DNA from: a bacterium
GTDB taxonomy: Bacteria; Patescibacteriota; Minisyncoccia; Phycocordibacterales; Phycocordibacteraceae
Direction: 5' to 3'
DNA: 64,000 nt
Assembly: GCA_021836725.1 (NCBI GenBank)
Contig: JAKBHL010000011.1
Location: 94,494 to 158,493 of the forward strand
Part shown: piece after piece, positions 53,081 through 64,000 of the stretch
Layout of the letters: the number at the start of each line of letters is the position of its first letter
Position numbering within the stretch: position 1 is the first letter of the stretch
Notes under the pieces: generated by a model
The model's database searches: none
What the model was told of the DNA's origin: nothing
Seen by the model: the letters and a program-made list of their open reading frames with translations, nothing else
Program-made: the position numbers and the translations under genes

Positions 53081-53098
53081 TTCCTATACTTGCCCCTA

Positions 53099-53506
53099 GC
53101 GGGGTAGAGGAGAGGTACCTCGGGAGGCTCATGTGAAAACGTGACCCTATCCGGTAACGGGTAGTGGAAAAACTCTCTAAATTGCTGGAATACCGTTAGA
53201 GCTTCTTGTGCTACAGCGCGATCCGAAAGGATGAGCGCGAACGCCTAAAAAACGAGAAGATTCGGCAATCAGCAGCCAAGCCTAGTTTTACTTCGGGGGT
53301 TCCCCCATTCCGATGGGGAAGGCGAACGGCGGAGTGCGAAAGTGAGGACAAAGTCCGAGCGGGAGCAACTCCGGTAAGTGAGACTGGGAAGGTTCAGAGA
53401 CTATAATGGGAGAGTCCTTATGGGATTGTGGTATAGTCCATTCCTGTTGGAAACAGCAGGTGTAAAAGAACCTCCAGACGCCGGTTCGATTCCGGCCCCC
53501 GCAACA
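53099..53506 (+). ncRNA. ssrA: Candidate tmRNA (ssrA), ~400 nt
   Basis: 3' tRNA-like end GCCGG-TTCGATT-CCGGC-CCCCGC-A with 5' GCGGGGT able to form the acceptor stem; promoter upstream and hairpin terminator downstream; tag ORF not confidently identified. Confidence 0.5.
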
Positions 53507-58010: not shown

Positions 58011-58532
58011 ATGAAAGGGCGGCAGGTGCACAACGGGATATCGAAATGTTTGGCATGGTACACTCGAAGAACTATGACGCACATCATCATCTTTACCGCG
58101 AATTATCTCTATCTGCTACCGGTAGTCATATTCATCGCGTACGGGCTCCTCACGAAAAGAAGGAGGGAGTTCATACTGCTTTCCGTGCTGGTGCTCCCGA
58201 CAAGCTATCTGCTTGGCGTTCTTGCCGGGCACCTGTTCTATGATCCGCGCCCCTTTGTCGTTTCCCATACCACGCCGCTCTTCCCCCACGCGCCGGACAA
58301 CGGATTCCCCTCGGATCACGCGCTCCTTACCGGAACGCTCGCGGCGCTCATCACGGCCTTTAGCGTGCCTCTTGGGTTGTTCATGTGGTTCCTCGCGTTT
58401 CTTATCGGCGCGTCCCGCGTCCTCGCCGGCGTGCATCACGCTCTCGATATCATCGGTTCGTTCCTTATCGCGGCGGCGAGCACGGCAGTTCTGTGGCAGC
58501 TTTTGAAACGATTCCACTCATTCCGGAACTAA
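58011..58532 (+). CDS. PAP2-family phosphatase (undecaprenyl-diphosphatase-like); probable start at 58074
   Basis: PSDH and SRVLAGVHHALD PAP2 motifs. Confidence 0.8.
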   Translation: MKGRQVHNGISKCLAWYTRRTMTHIIIFTANYLYLLPVVIFIAYGLLTKRRREFILLSVLVLPTSYLLGVLAGHLFYDPRPFVVSHTTPLFPHAPDNGFPSDHALLTGTLAALITAFSVPLGLFMWFLAFLIGASRVLAGVHHALDIIGSFLIAAASTAVLWQLLKRFHSFRN

Positions 58533-58568
58533 CGATTGTTTCTAAAGAGACGGCTGCGCGAGAACGAA

Positions 58569-58898
58569 TCAATGAGTGACCGGAAGACCAGCCTTCTGCC
58601 ACGCGATGATGCCACCGGTGACGCTTGCCGCCTGCTCCAGACCGAGGCCGTGCAGGAGATCGGTAGCCATGGAACTGCGTCCACCGGAACGGCAGATGAC
58701 ATGAATCGAATCGTATTGCTTGAGACGCGCCGCTTCGGTTTCAAGGCGGTCGATAGGGATGTTCAGCGCGCCGGCGATGCCTTCCGCGCGGACTTCTTCC
58801 CGCGTGCGCACGTCAAGCAGCACATGGCCTTCAGCGCCGAGGCGCTCATACGCTTCGGTGACGGATATGCTCGGGGGGCCGGATGAGAAGCCAAACAT
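58569..58898 (-). CDS. Rhodanese-domain sulfurtransferase
   Basis: Active-site loop CRSGGRS. Confidence 0.85.
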   Translation of the reverse strand: MFGFSSGPPSISVTEAYERLGAEGHVLLDVRTREEVRAEGIAGALNIPIDRLETEAARLKQYDSIHVICRSGGRSSMATDLLHGLGLEQAASVTGGIIAWQKAGLPVTH

Positions 58899-58972
58899 AC
58901 GTTACAAGAGAGCATACGGCGAAGCCGGCGCTGCCGTCAACACGCCGCGCGAACCGTACGCTCCACCGCCGG

Positions 58973-59458
58973 CTACCAATTTCCGATCTTGAAAGAGTAT
59001 TTCTCGTGCAGCATTCTGTCGATGCTGTAATAACGCCAACTTTTGCCGAGCCAGAGCGCGACAAATACGATGAAATAAATGATAGCCGCGCCGATATCGG
59101 TCGAGCCCGGCTGGTAAGGACCGCCAAATCCCTCGGCAGTCGACCAGATGACAAGCGCCATCAGCATGCCGCCGGTCATCGTCACTTTGCTGAAAACTCC
59201 GAAAATGAGACCGAGCGCAATCGCCGTTTCCGCAACCGCAACCACGATGGCGAAGAAATGGGGTTGAACGTTTACCCCTTGCACCCAGAGATTAATCCAG
59301 GCTTGCACCAGAGCGCCTTGTCCCTGCGCTCCGCTGGTAAGATACGAAGTGAGATTGTTGATGAACGCGGGACTCCACTTGAAATACGCATCAATGAGCC
59401 AGACGAAGCCGAAGGCGATACGCAAGACGGCAAACGAACGATCTTCTCGGGGGCGCAT
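58973..59458 (-). CDS. DoxX family membrane protein
   Basis: 4 TM helices, DoxX-like pattern. Confidence 0.7.
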   Translation of the reverse strand: MRPREDRSFAVLRIAFGFVWLIDAYFKWSPAFINNLTSYLTSGAQGQGALVQAWINLWVQGVNVQPHFFAIVVAVAETAIALGLIFGVFSKVTMTGGMLMALVIWSTAEGFGGPYQPGSTDIGAAIIYFIVFVALWLGKSWRYYSIDRMLHEKYSFKIGNW

Positions 59459-59592
59459 AATTGAAATGAGTTATGGAGTAGTAACCGGCAGACTCATGCT
59501 TCGAACGCGCACATCCATCATGGTAAAGCAAACGACGTGAAATGAAAGCGCCTCCTGGGGAGTAATAAAGATATACCAACATAGCCATATTC

Positions 59593-60072
59593 ATGAAAAA
59601 GCTTCTCGCAACATCATTCCTGGTCGGAGCGTCGGTCTTATACATATTCTTGCGGCCCGGGAATGCAACGACGCCCGCTACGCTTGGGGCGACAAACAAC
59701 GCCACCAGCGCCGGCGGCGGAACGGCGACGTCCCAAGGCAGCGCGGCACCGCCGCCCTCGTCGGCTGCGCCCGCCGCCGCACAAAGCGGATACAAGGATG
59801 GGACCTATACCGGCAGCATCGCGGATGCGTATTACGGGCCGGTGAAGGTGCAAGCAACGATTAAGGGTGGAGCTCTGAATAACGTCTCTTTCCTTTTGTT
59901 TCCAAATGGCGAGCAAACCTCGACTTATATAAACGAGCAGGTGATGCCGATGCTCACCCAGGAGGCGATTTCCGCACAAAGCGCAAACGTGAACGGTGTC
60001 TCCGGAGCGACGTTTACAAGCCAGGCATTCGAGCAATCGCTCGCTTCAGCACTCAGGAAAGCGCGAAGCTAG
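59593..60072 (+). CDS. Secreted FMN-binding domain protein (flavinylation target, SGAT motif)
   Basis: Signal peptide/anchor; VSGATFTS motif at C-terminus typical of FMN_bind domains flavinylated by ApbE. Confidence 0.75.
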   Translation: MKKLLATSFLVGASVLYIFLRPGNATTPATLGATNNATSAGGGTATSQGSAAPPPSSAAPAAAQSGYKDGTYTGSIADAYYGPVKVQATIKGGALNNVSFLLFPNGEQTSTYINEQVMPMLTQEAISAQSANVNGVSGATFTSQAFEQSLASALRKARS

Positions 60073-60078
60073 CCGGAC

Positions 60079-60822
60079 ATGCGGGAGACACGCCTCATCA
60101 TGGGCATGCCCATCGAAATAGAAATCGTGCACGAGGGCGCGCATGATGCGCTTGAAGCGGCGTTTGCGCACCTGGTCGCCGTTGATGAGCAGTTCAGTCC
60201 GTATAAAAATGACAGTGAAATTTCCCGTATGAACCGCGGCGAAGTTGCGCCTGCAACCTCGAGCGAAGCGATGCGCGAGATCCTCGCGCTTGCCGAAAGG
60301 ACGAAATCAGAGACTGACGGCTACTTCGATATTCGTCGTCCGGATGGGCTTATCGATCCTTCGGGCATCGTGAAGGGACTCGCGATACGCGATGTCGCGG
60401 CGCTTCTTTCCGCGCGCGGGTGCGGGCATTTTTTTGTAAATGCCGGCGGCGATATCGCAATGAGCGGGGAAAATCCGGACGGCAGCGCATGGAGCGTCGG
60501 CATCAGGAACCCGTTCAAGCACGACGAGATAGTGAAAGTCATCTATCCGCGCAGCAAGGGCGTCGCGACCTCGGGCTCCTACATCCGCGGCGCGCACATC
60601 TACAACCCGCATGCGCCCTCGGAGGAGCTGCGCGACGTCGTGAGCGTCACGGTCATCGGTCCCGATGTGCTCGAGGCGGATCGTTTCGCGACCGCGGCGT
60701 TTGCGATGGGGAAGGGTGGTATCACGTTTATCGAAAACCTGCCCGGCTTTGAAGGGTACGCGATCGACGCGCAGGGCATCGCAACCATGACGAGCGGTTT
60801 TGCCGCTTTTACCAAGCCATGA
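60079..60822 (+). CDS. apbE: ApbE-family FAD:protein FMN transferase (short form)
   Basis: ApbE fold motifs (DPSGIVKGLAIRD, GGDIA). Confidence 0.75.
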   Translation: MRETRLIMGMPIEIEIVHEGAHDALEAAFAHLVAVDEQFSPYKNDSEISRMNRGEVAPATSSEAMREILALAERTKSETDGYFDIRRPDGLIDPSGIVKGLAIRDVAALLSARGCGHFFVNAGGDIAMSGENPDGSAWSVGIRNPFKHDEIVKVIYPRSKGVATSGSYIRGAHIYNPHAPSEELRDVVSVTVIGPDVLEADRFATAAFAMGKGGITFIENLPGFEGYAIDAQGIATMTSGFAAFTKP

Positions 60823-62327
60823 TCGGGGCCCTGAAAGCGTTCATCGATCGCACCACGATGTATCGGCTGGTGCTCTATTACCTCCTCACGCTTCTTGCCG
60901 CCGCAGTCGTTTTGGGCGCGTTCGGCGTCCTGCCGTACGCGCCACTCGTCCTGCTGTATGCGACCGGCGTGCTGCTTGCGGCGGCGTGGATCAGCAACGA
61001 GATCCTGGCGCGATTTTTCGGCGCGGCGACCAATGCCGAGTCCGCCATCATTACGGCACTCATCCTCGCGCTCATCTTTTCGCCCCTTGCGGTTACCGGT
61101 ACTAACGGCGTTGCCGCCTTCGCGGCCATCGCCGCAGTCGCGATGGCGTCGAAGTATCTTCTTTCGATCGAGAAGAAGCACATCTTTAACCCGGCGGCGT
61201 TCGCCGCCGTGTTCTCGGCATTCGCCTTCGGAATTCCCGCGACATGGTGGATCGGCGGGAACAGCACGCTTTTGGCGCTCGTCATCCTCGGCGGCGTCCT
61301 CGTCGTGTATAAATTGCGCCGACTCGATCTCGTGCTCGCTTTTGCCGTCGCGGCGCTCGGCACCATCGCGCTTACGTCGTTTGATCCTCTCGGTGCGATT
61401 GAGGAAACGCTCCTACACTCCGCATTTTTCTTTCTCGCGTTCGTGATGCTGACCGAGCCTTTGACCATGCCGCCGACGCGGCGATCCCGCATCCTCTACG
61501 GCGCGCTCGTCGGCGTACTTTTCGTGCCTATCGTCCATGTGGGATCATTTTATGTTTCGCCGGAGTTGGGGCTTCTCATCGGAAATGCGTTTTCGTACCT
61601 GGTGAGCCCAAAGAGGCGTTATACGCTCACGCTCATCGAGCGCCACAAGCTTGCGCGCGGTATTTATGAATTCGTATTTCGCCCCGATCGCCCTTTGAAT
61701 TTCGCGCCCGGGCAGTATCTGGAATGGACGCTCGCGAAAGTCCCGTTCGACAGCCGCGGCAATCGCCGTTACTTCACGATCGCCTCAGCGCCTCATGATG
61801 AGAACGTGCGCCTCGGCGTGCGTTTCTACGAGACACCGAGCGCATTCAAACGCGCGCTCGCCGCACTCCCGCAGGAAGGAGTCATCTACGCCGCTTCGCT
61901 TGCCGGAGAATTCATGCTGCCGAAAGACAAAAAGAAAAAACTGGCATTCATCGCAGGCGGCGTGGGCATCACGCCGTTTGCAAGCATGGCACGGCATCTT
62001 TCTTCTTCCGGAGAATCGCGCGATGCGGTATTGCTCTATGCGAGCCGCACCGCCCCCGAAGTGGCATATCAGGACGTTTTCGCGCGCGCGGCGCGGGAGG
62101 GCTTGCGCACCGTTTATGCGCTCACGGCTGAAAGCCCTCTTCTGCCCGGCACGCATGCCGGAGCGATTGATGCGGCGCTCATCAAGCGCGAGATCCCCGA
62201 CTATCGCGAACGCCTCTTCTATCTTTCCGGGCCGCCGGGCATGGTGTCGGGAATGAAACGCATTCTCGTCGCGCTCGGCGTCTCGCGCTTCTCGATCAAG
62301 ACCGATTACTTCCCCGGCCTCGCCTGA
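60819..62327 (+). CDS. Polytopic membrane oxidoreductase: N-terminal 6-8 TM domain fused to C-terminal FNR-like FAD/NAD(P)-binding module
   Basis: RYFTIASAP (RxYS FAD motif) and GGVGITP NAD motif; coupled (overlap) with apbE. Confidence 0.7.
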   Translation: MIGALKAFIDRTTMYRLVLYYLLTLLAAAVVLGAFGVLPYAPLVLLYATGVLLAAAWISNEILARFFGAATNAESAIITALILALIFSPLAVTGTNGVAAFAAIAAVAMASKYLLSIEKKHIFNPAAFAAVFSAFAFGIPATWWIGGNSTLLALVILGGVLVVYKLRRLDLVLAFAVAALGTIALTSFDPLGAIEETLLHSAFFFLAFVMLTEPLTMPPTRRSRILYGALVGVLFVPIVHVGSFYVSPELGLLIGNAFSYLVSPKRRYTLTLIERHKLARGIYEFVFRPDRPLNFAPGQYLEWTLAKVPFDSRGNRRYFTIASAPHDENVRLGVRFYETPSAFKRALAALPQEGVIYAASLAGEFMLPKDKKKKLAFIAGGVGITPFASMARHLSSSGESRDAVLLYASRTAPEVAYQDVFARAAREGLRTVYALTAESPLLPGTHAGAIDAALIKREIPDYRERLFYLSGPPGMVSGMKRILVALGVSRFSIKTDYFPGLA

Positions 62328-62369: not shown

Positions 62370-64000
62370 ATGCCTTCCGATAAGAAGAGAACAGCGCGCG
62401 TGTGGCCTGTGTTGCGCGCGTACAGCAAAGCCGCGCTCGCATATCCGAAATCCCTGAGCATCGCGATCATCGCGACAATCGGTATTGAAGCGGCCGCGGT
62501 CATCGCGCCGCTATATTTGCGGCAGTTCATAGATCTGCTCTCCGGCGGCGCACCCTCTGTGGGCACCGTGCAAGCGCTTTTCATCGTGCTCGGCTTTTTT
62601 GCCGCGGTAAATTTTGTCGGATGGATCGGACAGCGCGTACGCATGCTCTCAATCGGGCGCATGGAAGCGAAAGTGATGACCGATTTGTATGAAAACGCTT
62701 TCAATTATCTGCTCGGCCACGCGCATGAGTTTTTCATCTCGAACTTCACCGGCACGCTCACGCGCCGCGTTGCGCGTTACGCGCGCTCCTTTGAACAAGT
62801 TTTCGATAATCTGCTACTCAACTTTTCCCCCGCCTTTATTTTCGCCATCGGCGTCATCGGTGTGCTCTCGACGCAAAGCATGCTGCTTGGCGTCGGGCTT
62901 TTCGTATGGACGGTCACATTCGTATACATCCAGTTTAGGATGGTGCTGTGGCGCCAGCCGCTGCGCTCCGCGCGCGCCGAGGAAGACAGCAAGGTAACCG
63001 GTTTCCTTTCCGACACGGTACTCAACCACTCGACCATCACTACTTTCGCAGCCGCCCCGTACGAGAGGATGCGGTTTCAAGACACGGTCGCGCGCTGGTA
63101 TGCGGCGACAAAGCGCGCCTGGGATGCCGATGCGTGGGTCTACGGCGTGCAGGGGCTCTTCGCCATCGGGATAGAGGTGGCGCTGCTCGCGGGCGCGGTG
63201 CTGCTCTGGCAGCAAGGCATCGTGACGGTGGGAGATTTCGTGCTGATCCAGATCTACATTCTCGGCCTCATGAATCGCATCTGGGGCATCGGGCGCAACA
63301 TGCGCCAGCTCTACGACGCGTTCGCCGATGCGACTGAAATGCTCGATATCATCGAGATGCCGCACGCGATCCAGGATGCCGCAGGCGCACAACCCCTCCG
63401 GGTGCGCGAGGGAGCGATCACTTTCGAGCATGTCCATTTCGAGTACCATGAAAATCAGGCGGTGCTTCTTGATTTCGACCTTGCCATCCCGCCGCACGAA
63501 AAAGTGGCGCTGGTCGGCTCTTCCGGCGCGGGGAAGTCGACCATCACGAAACTGCTCCTGCGTCTCTACGATGTCACGGATGGGGCTATCCGCATCGACG
63601 GGCAGAACATAGCCGATGTGGCGCAGGAGAGCTTGCGCGCGGCGATAGCGTTCGTTCCGCAAGAGCCGATGCTCTTTCACCGTTCGCTCATGGACAACAT
63701 CCGCTATGGCCGCCAGGGGGCGACCGACGAGGAGGTTTTCGAAGCGGCGCGGCAAGCGCACTGCGATGAGTTCATCGGCCGTTATCCGGAAGGGTTTGAG
63801 ACGATGGTCGGCGAGCGCGGCGTAAAGCTTTCCGGAGGCGAGCGCCAGCGCGTGGCGATCGCGCGCGCAATCCTGAAAAACGCGCCGATTCTCGTCCTCG
63901 ACGAGGCGACATCGAGTCTTGATTCTGAATCCGAGGCGCTTATTCAGGATGCGTTTACGCGGCTCATGCGGGGCAAGACCGTCATCGCCATCGCGCACCG
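62370..64000 (+). CDS. ABC transporter permease/ATP-binding fusion (MsbA-like exporter), 3'-truncated by window edge
   Basis: 6-TM domain then Walker A GSSGAGKST, signature LSGGERQR; not in ORF track because no stop within window. Confidence 0.85.
   Translation, partial: MPSDKKRTARVWPVLRAYSKAALAYPKSLSIAIIATIGIEAAAVIAPLYLRQFIDLLSGGAPSVGTVQALFIVLGFFAAVNFVGWIGQRVRMLSIGRMEAKVMTDLYENAFNYLLGHAHEFFISNFTGTLTRRVARYARSFEQVFDNLLLNFSPAFIFAIGVIGVLSTQSMLLGVGLFVWTVTFVYIQFRMVLWRQPLRSARAEEDSKVTGFLSDTVLNHSTITTFAAAPYERMRFQDTVARWYAATKRAWDADAWVYGVQGLFAIGIEVALLAGAVLLWQQGIVTVGDFVLIQIYILGLMNRIWGIGRNMRQLYDAFADATEMLDIIEMPHAIQDAAGAQPLRVREGAITFEHVHFEYHENQAVLLDFDLAIPPHEKVALVGSSGAGKSTITKLLLRLYDVTDGAIRIDGQNIADVAQESLRAAIAFVPQEPMLFHRSLMDNIRYGRQGATDEEVFEAARQAHCDEFIGRYPEGFETMVGERGVKLSGGERQRVAIARAILKNAPILVLDEATSSLDSESEALIQDAFTRLMRGKTVIAIAH

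Follow-up and report, generated by a model that had tools for sequence, protein, structure and literature searches.

A Patescibacteria operon of the NQR/RNF-like class encodes an FMN-binding subunit, a leaderless ApbE and an RnfD-FNR fusion protein

A tight three-gene operon at 59593-62327 (+ strand) of a 64,000-nucleotide stretch, here called the window, of Patescibacteria DNA of the Paceibacteria type is a member of the NQR/RNF-like flavinylation-associated system, as operationally defined by Méheust et al. 2021 eLife (PMC8238504). Its three genes probably encode a one-way transmembrane electron-transfer complex of the NQR/RNF-like type together with its own flavin-attachment enzyme. The operon is a clean example of its class, with spurious neighbours dropped from the model, and it exposes a testable inconsistency between a leaderless ApbE and a substrate predicted to lie on the outside. 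The genes and their surroundings are as follows.

58011-58532, + strand: PAP2 neighbour (Pfam, 62.6 bits)
58569-58898, - strand: rhodanese neighbour (Pfam, 49.4 bits)
58973-59458, - strand: DoxX-like neighbour (Pfam, 18.8 bits, under the cut-off of 23.6)
59593-60072, + strand: FMN_bind subunit, 159 aa (Pfam PF04205, 34.6 bits)
60001-60012, + strand: SGAT flavinylation motif, read straight from the sequence (T140 codon, 60010-60012)
60079-60822, + strand: short leaderless ApbE-family FAD:protein FMN transferase, 247 aa (Pfam PF02424, 145.6 bits)
60819-61616, + strand: RnfD/NqrB-like membrane domain, residues 1-266 of the 502-aa fusion protein (PF03116)
61617-62327, + strand: FNR-like FAD/NAD(P)H module, residues 267-502 of the 502-aa fusion protein (PF00175)

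An earlier sequence-only reading of this DNA had described a minimal ApbE-associated Nqr/Rnf-like module, and open reading frames, Pfam and NCBIfam placed every gene that it had named where it had seen them; among the HMM profiles that it had suggested, FMN_bind, ApbE, NQR2_RnfD_RnfE and NAD_binding_1 gave matches. The module has the architecture of the published class, which requires that an NqrB/RnfD domain (PF03116) at the N-terminus and an NqrF-type NAD-binding domain (PF00175) at the C-terminus be joined in a single protein, encoded within five genes of ApbE (PF02424) or FMN_bind (PF04205) (PMC8238504). Indeed, the 502-aa protein (60819-62327) combines PF03116 and PF00175 in this way, and the genes for ApbE and FMN_bind lie directly upstream in the same operon. 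It also shares the feature used by Huang et al. 2024 mSystems (PMC11334425, PMC10979944), who modelled the system for Ktedonobacter racemifer, of an NqrB/RnfD-like subunit lacking the conserved flavinylated Thr. The two-subunit architecture, the clustered ApbE gene and the taxa (CPR, Actinobacteria, Chloroflexi) are likewise those of the known system, and we found no architectural difference. The host is indeed a CPR bacterium, as the sequence-only reading had stressed; however, earlier work had reported the system, chiefly from Actinobacteria and the candidate phyla radiation (PMC11334425), and its presence is therefore less surprising than that reading held. The closest homologues of the operon are from Patescibacteria, and apart from the leaderless ApbE it is ordinary for its bacterial group.

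The gene order FMN_bind, ApbE, RnfD-FNR is kept in 48 of 72 loci, spanning Patescibacteria, Alphaproteobacteria, Chloroflexota and Spirochaetota, and the window's order recurs in two Ktedonobacteria loci (L013 and L031). Intergenic gaps in the related loci range from -17 to +56 nt and are mostly 1-7 nt. In the window, the stop of ApbE overlaps the start of the fusion gene by 4 nt (ATGA), confirming the overlap noted previously. The FMN_bind and ApbE genes share a frame and are separated by TAG and two codons, but a read-through fusion at this stop codon was rejected, since the frame is shared in 9 of 39 related loci, which is about what chance would give. A scan for promoters and terminators gave results at or near shuffle expectation and was uninformative. 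The first report listed 127 clusters (PMC8238504), a number that the family far exceeds: we counted more than 435 loci among GTDB species representatives and 557 clusters at 50% identity (E<=1e-30).

The N-terminal half of the fusion protein matches PF03116 (NQR2_RnfD_RnfE) over residues 147-262 with 42.7 bits (cut-off 27.7) and has about 10 helices. Its AF2 model (pLDDT 79.8) retrieved only RnfD or NqrB chains among the top 15 Foldseek matches in the PDB (TMq 0.63-0.74). Sequence and predicted fold thus speak against a membrane domain unrelated to redox carriers, which the sequence-only reading had named as an outcome that would undo it. Hydropathy and the distribution of Lys and Arg give an N-in/C-in topology, with all K/R-rich loops on the side of the FNR module. 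In the alignment with RnfD (8ahx_D), about 55 residues (about 144-198) are unmatched between approximately W144 and G146 of the query; by this comparison, the loop that bears the flavinylated Thr in RnfD and NqrB is deleted, and its site lies on the opposite, outer side. No [ST]GA[ST] motif was found in the membrane domain. The conserved A-[TS]-W-W (141-144) was considered as a relic flavinylation site and rejected: it aligns ahead of the RnfD loop and lacks D-x-x-[ST]-G. Only H121 and H240 are invariant among the histidines, and they are predicted to lie on opposite membrane faces; as the RnfD/NqrB fold carries no haem, the heme-binding His pairs that the earlier reading had proposed to look for in this domain are unlikely. 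Nor does the protein belong to the NOX/ferric-reductase type: it has no PF01794 match, its fold is that of RnfD/NqrB and not of NOX, and it has only these two invariant histidines where that type has two bis-His haem sites.

The C-terminal half is a complete FNR-type FAD/NAD(P)H module, bearing out the earlier description of a polytopic membrane protein fused to such a domain. PF00175 (NAD_binding_1) matches residues 377-479 with 45.4 bits, and the motifs RRYFTIAS (316-323), GGVGITP (380-386), SGPPGM (470-475) and a C-terminal DYFPGLA are present. The NCBIfam alignments over residues 274-498 were to flavohaemoprotein-type reductase modules, profile matches in the PDB were to T4moF, b5 reductase, flavohaemoglobin and NqrF, and Foldseek superposed the module on 4eh1 with TMt 0.83 and an rmsd of 2.9 Å. 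The fusion protein has no Cys anywhere and therefore no 2Fe-2S domain.

The FMN_bind protein starts with MKK and a 17-residue hydrophobic anchor (residues 4-20), followed by a Ser/Thr/Ala/Pro-rich linker (about residues 21-66) and the FMN-binding domain (residues 67-159). The SGAT motif (residues 137-140, in the context NGV-SGAT-FTS) is present as previously described; [DN]-x-[IV]-SGA[ST] is kept in all FMN_bind partners from related loci, and FMN is predicted to be joined to T140 by a phosphoester bond. The nearest solved structure is the FMN-binding domain 8p2a (E 7e-15), presumably a domain from the Streptomyces azureus protein that PMC10339131 describes as flavinylated by ApbE. The protein had been called a lipoprotein, but it contains no Cys, and hence no lipobox Cys, and cannot be one; its sequence suggests a signal-anchored protein. 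The putative N-terminal export or anchor segment agrees with the earlier interpretation, against which the absence of a signal peptide would have spoken. In 42 of 45 homologues the residues ahead of the anchor carry more positive charge than those behind it, from which an N-in/C-out orientation is predicted. The Pro/Thr/Ser-rich tether of the homologues is long, reaching about 170 residues in Mesorhizobium.

ApbE is short, as had been noted, and it also lacks a signal peptide. Domain and catalytic and metal-site motifs place it in the flavin transferase family: aligned to E. coli/Salmonella ApbE, it keeps TSGSY (164-168), H173-IYNP and EADRFAT (199-205), while about 50 residues of those proteins (about 105-155) are absent. 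A search for an N-terminal lipoprotein or secretion signal in the operon's ApbE found none: the protein begins 7 residues ahead of the conserved MGMP, its N-terminus (MRETRLIMGMP) has no hydrophobic segment, and the open reading frame cannot be extended because a stop codon lies 6 nt upstream. The N-terminus is leaderless in every related locus examined in which ApbE was found and in the 117 of 120 public homologues with a locatable MGMP motif, and this holds for both ApbE clades associated with the system, across at least 5 phyla. To what is known of the class we can add that its ApbE is always short or leaderless and that both redox proteins of the present operon are Cys-free.

For cofactors, direction of electron flow, docking and acceptor, we infer the following path. 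NAD(P)H would reduce the FAD of the cytoplasmic FNR module, which would pass electrons to a non-covalent flavin in the RnfD/NqrB-like domain, the equivalent of the membrane-spanning riboflavin/FMN pair of NqrB/RnfD. From there they would reach the covalent FMN that ApbE is expected to attach to T140 of the FMN_bind subunit, which would dock at the outer face, filling the position of the RnfD flavinylation loop that is lost here, and deliver them to an extracytosolic acceptor. The lack of Cys in both redox proteins and the RnfD/NqrB fold make it unlikely that haem or Fe-S serves as a carrier; flavins probably account for the whole path. Patescibacteria are regarded as fermenters devoid of electron-transport chains. 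In such a cell without a respiratory chain, the complex is likely to serve as an NAD(P)H outlet, for example onto external oxidants such as Fe(III) or O2; if so, a widespread flavin wire from NAD(P)H to the outside would give CPR bacteria a disposal route for reducing equivalents and could let them reduce iron or oxygen on their own surface or on a host. Published descriptions of the class consist solely of bioinformatic and AlphaFold prediction (PMC8238504, PMC11334425), and in the published work on it we found experimental proof of cofactor, activity or acceptor for no member.

With Rnf (RnfABCDGE) and Na+-NQR (NqrABCDEF) the operon shares the RnfD/NqrB fold and ApbE-dependent flavinylation; FMN_bind takes the role of RnfG/NqrC, and the FNR module resembles the FAD/NADH domain of NqrF. 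However, no genes for RnfA/E (NqrD/E), RnfB or RnfC (NqrA) occur in or beside the operon, and it does not belong to these complexes, which have Fe-S centres, retain the covalent-FMN loop and show semicircular electron flow, in contrast to the one-way outward flow proposed here; their ApbE, unlike the present one, is a lipoprotein. The membrane domain does retain the re-entrant FNPA and TEPLTMPP motifs, and NqrB and RnfD are parts of ion-translocating complexes, so one could think of a minimal, energy-coupled Na+/H+ redox pump instead of a simple electron outlet. We regard this as quite improbable, as the RnfA/E and NqrD/E subunits missing from the operon belong to the redox-coupled ion path in current models. 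Another related system is Listeria-type flavin-based EET (Ndh2, EetA/B, DmkA, PplA, FmnB), in which electrons also pass from cytoplasmic NAD(P)H to an ApbE-flavinylated surface FMN_bind protein in a monoderm-type cell. Ndh2, the quinone step and EetA/B are all absent from our operon, and PplA and FmnB are lipoproteins, whereas here FMN_bind appears to be signal-anchored and ApbE is leaderless. The Bifidobacterium sifE/apbE iron system (PMC5449479) was also considered and is a different system.

The leaderless ApbE counts against the outward path, because the FMN_bind protein that it should modify has a predicted outward orientation. Among characterised ApbEs, all those acting on exported domains are exported themselves, whereas the leaderless ones act on cytoplasmic proteins (review PMC12052999). 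The ApbE of Klebsiella pneumoniae likewise has no signal peptide, but its substrate is a soluble cytoplasmic fumarate reductase (PMC12052999), whereas the only canonical motif here is predicted to face outward. The whole flavin chain might then face the cytoplasm, with FMN_bind oriented N-out/C-in and flavinylated inside the cell, and the complex acting as a membrane-bound NAD(P)H oxidoreductase whose acceptor is membrane-soluble or bound in the membrane domain rather than extracytosolic. This arrangement would suit the known substrates of leaderless ApbEs, the leaderless state of both clades and the quinone and riboflavin sites of NqrB, which in NQR structures sit towards the cytoplasmic side; but it contradicts the positive-inside rule for FMN_bind, leaves the gap of the deleted loop on the outer face and the long tethers, typical of envelope-spanning linkers, unaccounted for, and to our knowledge quinones are generally absent from Patescibacteria. 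The published multimer model also sets the FMN_bind subunit outside (PMC11334425), and we consider the cytoplasm-facing arrangement unlikely. More broadly, should ApbE be cytoplasmic throughout the class, either FMN_bind receives its flavin before export, or without being exported, through a route new for ApbE substrates, or the extracytosolic assignment is wrong and NQR/RNF-like systems are inward-facing membrane NAD(P)H oxidoreductases; we see this as possible but doubtful.

The DoxX-like, rhodanese and PAP2 genes do adjoin the operon, as the sequence-only reading had pointed out, both in the window and in contigs of the same species, and could suggest a sulfur- or thiosulfate-linked redox module. 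This is very improbable: in 80 related loci there were no homologues of the DoxX-like, PAP2 or DUF378 proteins and one rhodanese, none of these four families is among the 25 commonest families listed for 150 immediate neighbours, the genes lie on the opposite strand or are transcribed separately, and the DoxX match is below the Pfam cut-off. We conclude that the DoxX-like, rhodanese, PAP2 and DUF378 genes are incidental neighbours outside the system. A search of the 150 flanking ORFs for a conserved acceptor gene found none linked to the operon; the census gave a two-component system (10-12 members), DUF5666 (4), Nramp (2) and VIT1 (2). Natural fusions of FMN_bind or ApbE to RnfD-FNR, from which the topology could be read, were also sought in long actinobacterial ORFs (557-755 aa), which have no extra Pfam domain; the representative-library matches to the RnfD-FNR protein all begin at the membrane domain, and these long frames are over-extended ORFs in high-GC DNA.

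ORF mapping combined with Pfam and NCBIfam scans recovered every gene named in the sequence-only reading of this region, whose core consists of three genes in one block on the same strand:

59593-60072, forward strand: FMN_bind protein (159 aa; Pfam, 34.6 bits)
60079-60822, forward strand: ApbE (247 aa; Pfam, 145.6 bits)
60819-62327, forward strand: RnfD-FNR, 502-aa protein with an RnfD/NqrB-like membrane domain and an FNR module (PF03116 NQR2_RnfD_RnfE, 42.7 bits, cut-off 27.7 bits; PF00175 NAD_binding_1, 45.4 bits)

The FMN_bind and ApbE genes are 6 nt apart, and the reported overlap of the ApbE stop with the membrane-protein gene was seen as an ATGA that joins the end of ApbE to the start of the 502-aa gene. 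ApbE contains a single cysteine, and the proteins encoded by 59593-60072 and 60819-62327 contain none.

The N-terminal half of the 502-aa protein aligned with Azotobacter RnfD (8ahx_D; family profile, E 3.9e-4) in two blocks, query residues 10-145 with RnfD 14-143 and query residues 126-262 with RnfD 198-333. These blocks leave ~55 RnfD residues unmatched, which we take to be the outer loop bearing the ApbE-flavinylated Thr. Residues 1-266 were modelled with AF2 (pLDDT 79.8), and the top 15 PDB matches of this model were RnfD and NqrB chains only (E 3.7e-6 to 5e-4, TMq 0.63-0.74), followed by urea transporters with E>0.1. Hydropathy averaged over the family indicated ~10 helices in the membrane domain. 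Since every K/R-rich loop (SKYLLSIEKKH, YKLRR, TRRSR and SPKRR) is on the side of the FNR module, the protein is predicted to be N-in/C-in, and this topology puts what is left of the flavinylation loop, PATWWIGGN (140-148), on the outer face.

In the C-terminal half, the family profile hit PDB reductase modules of the FNR type over residues ~264-500, e.g. T4moF, cytochrome b5 reductase, flavohaemoglobin and the FAD domain of NqrF, and NCBIfam alignments extended over residues 274-498. The AF2 model of this half (pLDDT 85.2, pTM 0.78) superposed on FAD/NAD modules, e.g. 4eh1 (TMt 0.83, rmsd 2.9 Å), and RRYFTIAS (R-x-Y-[ST]), GGVGITP, SGPPGM and an aromatic C-terminal residue are invariant across the family. 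As the whole 502-aa sequence is free of cysteine, it would carry neither a 2Fe-2S or other Fe-S centre nor a c-type haem. The haem-binding His pair considered in the sequence-only reading is unlikely: the only invariant histidines of the family, H121 and H240, are predicted to lie on different sides of the membrane, and this speaks against a bis-His haem in the membrane domain.

The FMN_bind protein carries the flavinylation motif NGV-SGAT-FTS, and since SGAT occupies residues 137-140, T140 is the predicted flavinylated residue. The closest solved relative of its domain is 8p2a (E 7e-15), presumably one domain of the multi-FMN protein from Streptomyces azureus. The latter is flavinylated by ApbE (PMC10339131). 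FMN_bind had been called a lipoprotein, a description that we could not maintain, because a protein without cysteine cannot contain a lipobox; the N-terminal segment MKK-LLATSFLVGASVLYIFL-R would be a signal anchor, or else a signal peptide that is not cleaved off. In 45 FMN_bind partners from related loci, the mean charge of the anchor flanks was +2.0/-0.1 on the N-terminal side and +1.0/-1.1 on the C-terminal side. An N-in/C-out orientation is predicted because the N-flank was the more positive one in 42 of the 45 proteins. The anchor of these partners is followed by a Pro/Thr/Ser/Ala-rich tether of 30 to ~170 residues.

The ApbE retains the TSGSY, H173-IYNP and EADRFAT motifs and is indeed short, with an internal loss of ~50 residues (~105-155) relative to E. 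coli/Salmonella ApbE. The conserved MGMP sits 7 residues into the protein, and an upstream stop rules out a longer ORF. In related loci the ApbE start is always M-[KR]-x-T-R-x-x-M-G-M-P; a second clade of ~290 aa from Saccharibacteria and Actinobacteria starts with F-[ED]-A-I-G-T. A hydrophobic leader was absent from both clades in all related loci where ApbE was found. We repeated this check on the 120 nearest public ApbE homologues, whose gene starts come from independent pipelines: the conserved motif was present in 117, within the first 14 residues in 105, and a hydrophobic N-terminal extension was found in 0 of 12 longer extensions. Characterised ApbEs with exported substrates are lipoproteins or secreted, an ApbE knockout was not complemented by cytosolically expressed ApbE, and the known leaderless ApbE acts on a cytoplasmic enzyme (PMC12052999). 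Signal peptides of the NQR/RNF-like system are not mentioned by Méheust et al. 2021 (PMC8238504) or Huang et al. 2024 (PMC11334425). Possibly, a second, exported ApbE is encoded elsewhere in the carrier genomes, or FMN_bind is flavinylated before export, or, contrary to the predicted orientation, the FMN_bind domain is in fact inward-facing. A read-through fusion of FMN_bind and ApbE was excluded as an answer.

The NQR/RNF-like system is defined as a PF03116-PF00175 fusion within a flavinylation-associated cluster (Méheust et al. 2021, PMC8238504), and Huang et al. 2024 (PMC11334425) modelled the Ktedonobacter complex and described the loss of the flavinylation site from the RnfD-like subunit. 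The window operon has each testable defining feature of this system and, judged by its sequence, is a new member of this already known, bioinformatically defined class. Lacking RnfA/E/B/C, NqrA/D/E and any Fe-S centre, it does not count as a canonical Rnf or NQR complex; nor is it a Listeria-type EET locus, and the 502-aa protein is not of the NOX/ferric-reductase type. The sequence-only proposal of a minimal ApbE-associated electron-transfer module was correct in substance. In the best-supported path, with the FMN_bind subunit facing outwards, electrons would pass from NAD(P)H to the FAD of the cytoplasmic FNR module, from there to a flavin bound non-covalently by the RnfD-like domain, then to the covalent FMN on T140, and finally to an acceptor. 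Protein identities, topology predictions and conservation of the operon are what the analysis shows; which cofactors take part, which way the electrons run and what accepts them are inferred.

Upstream of the core are a divergent DoxX-like gene and rhodanese, PAP2 and DUF378 genes, and an ABC exporter gene follows downstream:

58973-59458, reverse strand: DoxX-like gene (PF07681, 18.8 bits, gathering cut-off 23.6; no NCBIfam assignment)
62370-64000, forward strand: ABC exporter (ABC_membrane + ABC_tran, 594 aa), starting 42 nt after the RnfD-FNR stop and running beyond the window

The identity of the first gene as DoxX is uncertain. The DoxX-like, rhodanese and PAP2 neighbours are present as described, and their apparent association with the operon is not conserved: the 80 related loci contained no homologue of the DoxX-like, PAP2 or DUF378 genes and one of the rhodanese. 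Because the neighbours vary, the functional unit is the three-gene core. There is no terminator-like site between the RnfD-FNR stop and the exporter gene, which may be co-transcribed with the operon in this organism; the adjacency was seen in same-species contigs only. When 150 ORFs immediately next to the operon in ~40 loci were surveyed with Pfam, no family recurred except a histidine kinase/OmpR-type pair (10-12 members), DUF5666 (4), Nramp (2) and VIT1 (2), and neither the 80 loci nor this census revealed an acceptor gene linked to the operon. There is a weak hint of a link to iron or manganese, which agrees with the six clusters that Méheust et al. (PMC8238504) found linked to VIT1. A sensor histidine kinase and an OmpR-type response regulator adjoin the operon in about a quarter of the loci examined, e.g. 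in L009 (9491-11625), L012, L015, L020, L023, L035, L044 and L075.

The identical 502-aa protein, with the same gene order, occurs on contigs of the MAGs GCA_027328985.1 and GCA_021843165.1, as well as on several metagenome contigs in ENA. Closed CPR genomes such as CP066688.1 and OY970314.1 also have the operon, and Mesorhizobium, Ktedonobacter and Agreia are among its cultivable carriers. The named homologues that match the 502-aa protein best belong to Minisyncoccota, Paceibacterota, Parcubacteria and Kaiserbacteria; since these are Patescibacteria groups, the attribution to a CPR-type genome was right. The GC content of the window is ~58%. Scanning GTDB species representatives gave more than 435 confirmed loci, a lower bound, and the 80 kept for comparison came from Patescibacteria, Mesorhizobium/Kaistia, Ktedonobacteria and other Chloroflexota, Spirochaetota and Actinobacteria. 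Of the 72 loci with a full anchor gene, 48 had the genes arranged as FMN_bind, short ApbE (~247 aa), RnfD-FNR, and gaps between core genes were mostly 1-7 nt. Searched exhaustively with a profile of the membrane domain, the family comprised 557 clusters (50% identity) when E<=1e-30 was required and 1332 when the limit was E<=1e-10, with full-length members of ~480-515 aa that have this domain at their N-terminal start. The NQR/RNF-like operon is common in Patescibacteria. Alphaproteobacterial homologues (L009, L012, L015, L020 and L023 from Mesorhizobium/Phyllobacterium; L010, L011, L048) are ~48-50% identical to the window 502-aa protein, compared with only 35-44% for Saccharibacteria (L025, L050, L062, L069), which suggests that the whole three-gene operon moved between phyla by horizontal transfer.

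The window also contains an interrupted tRNA gene:

53098-53506, forward strand: tRNA-Met(CAU) gene with intron (Rfam RF00028, 60.2 bits, 53121-53460)

The insertion is a group I intron of ~336 nt that splits the anticodon loop directly after CAU. On the unspliced DNA ARAGORN gave no match at all, and a weak 'tmRNA 3' end' match at 53479-53496 was rejected as the T-arm and acceptor of the split tRNA. Removal of 53133-53468 resulted in a clean tRNA-Met cloverleaf in ARAGORN.
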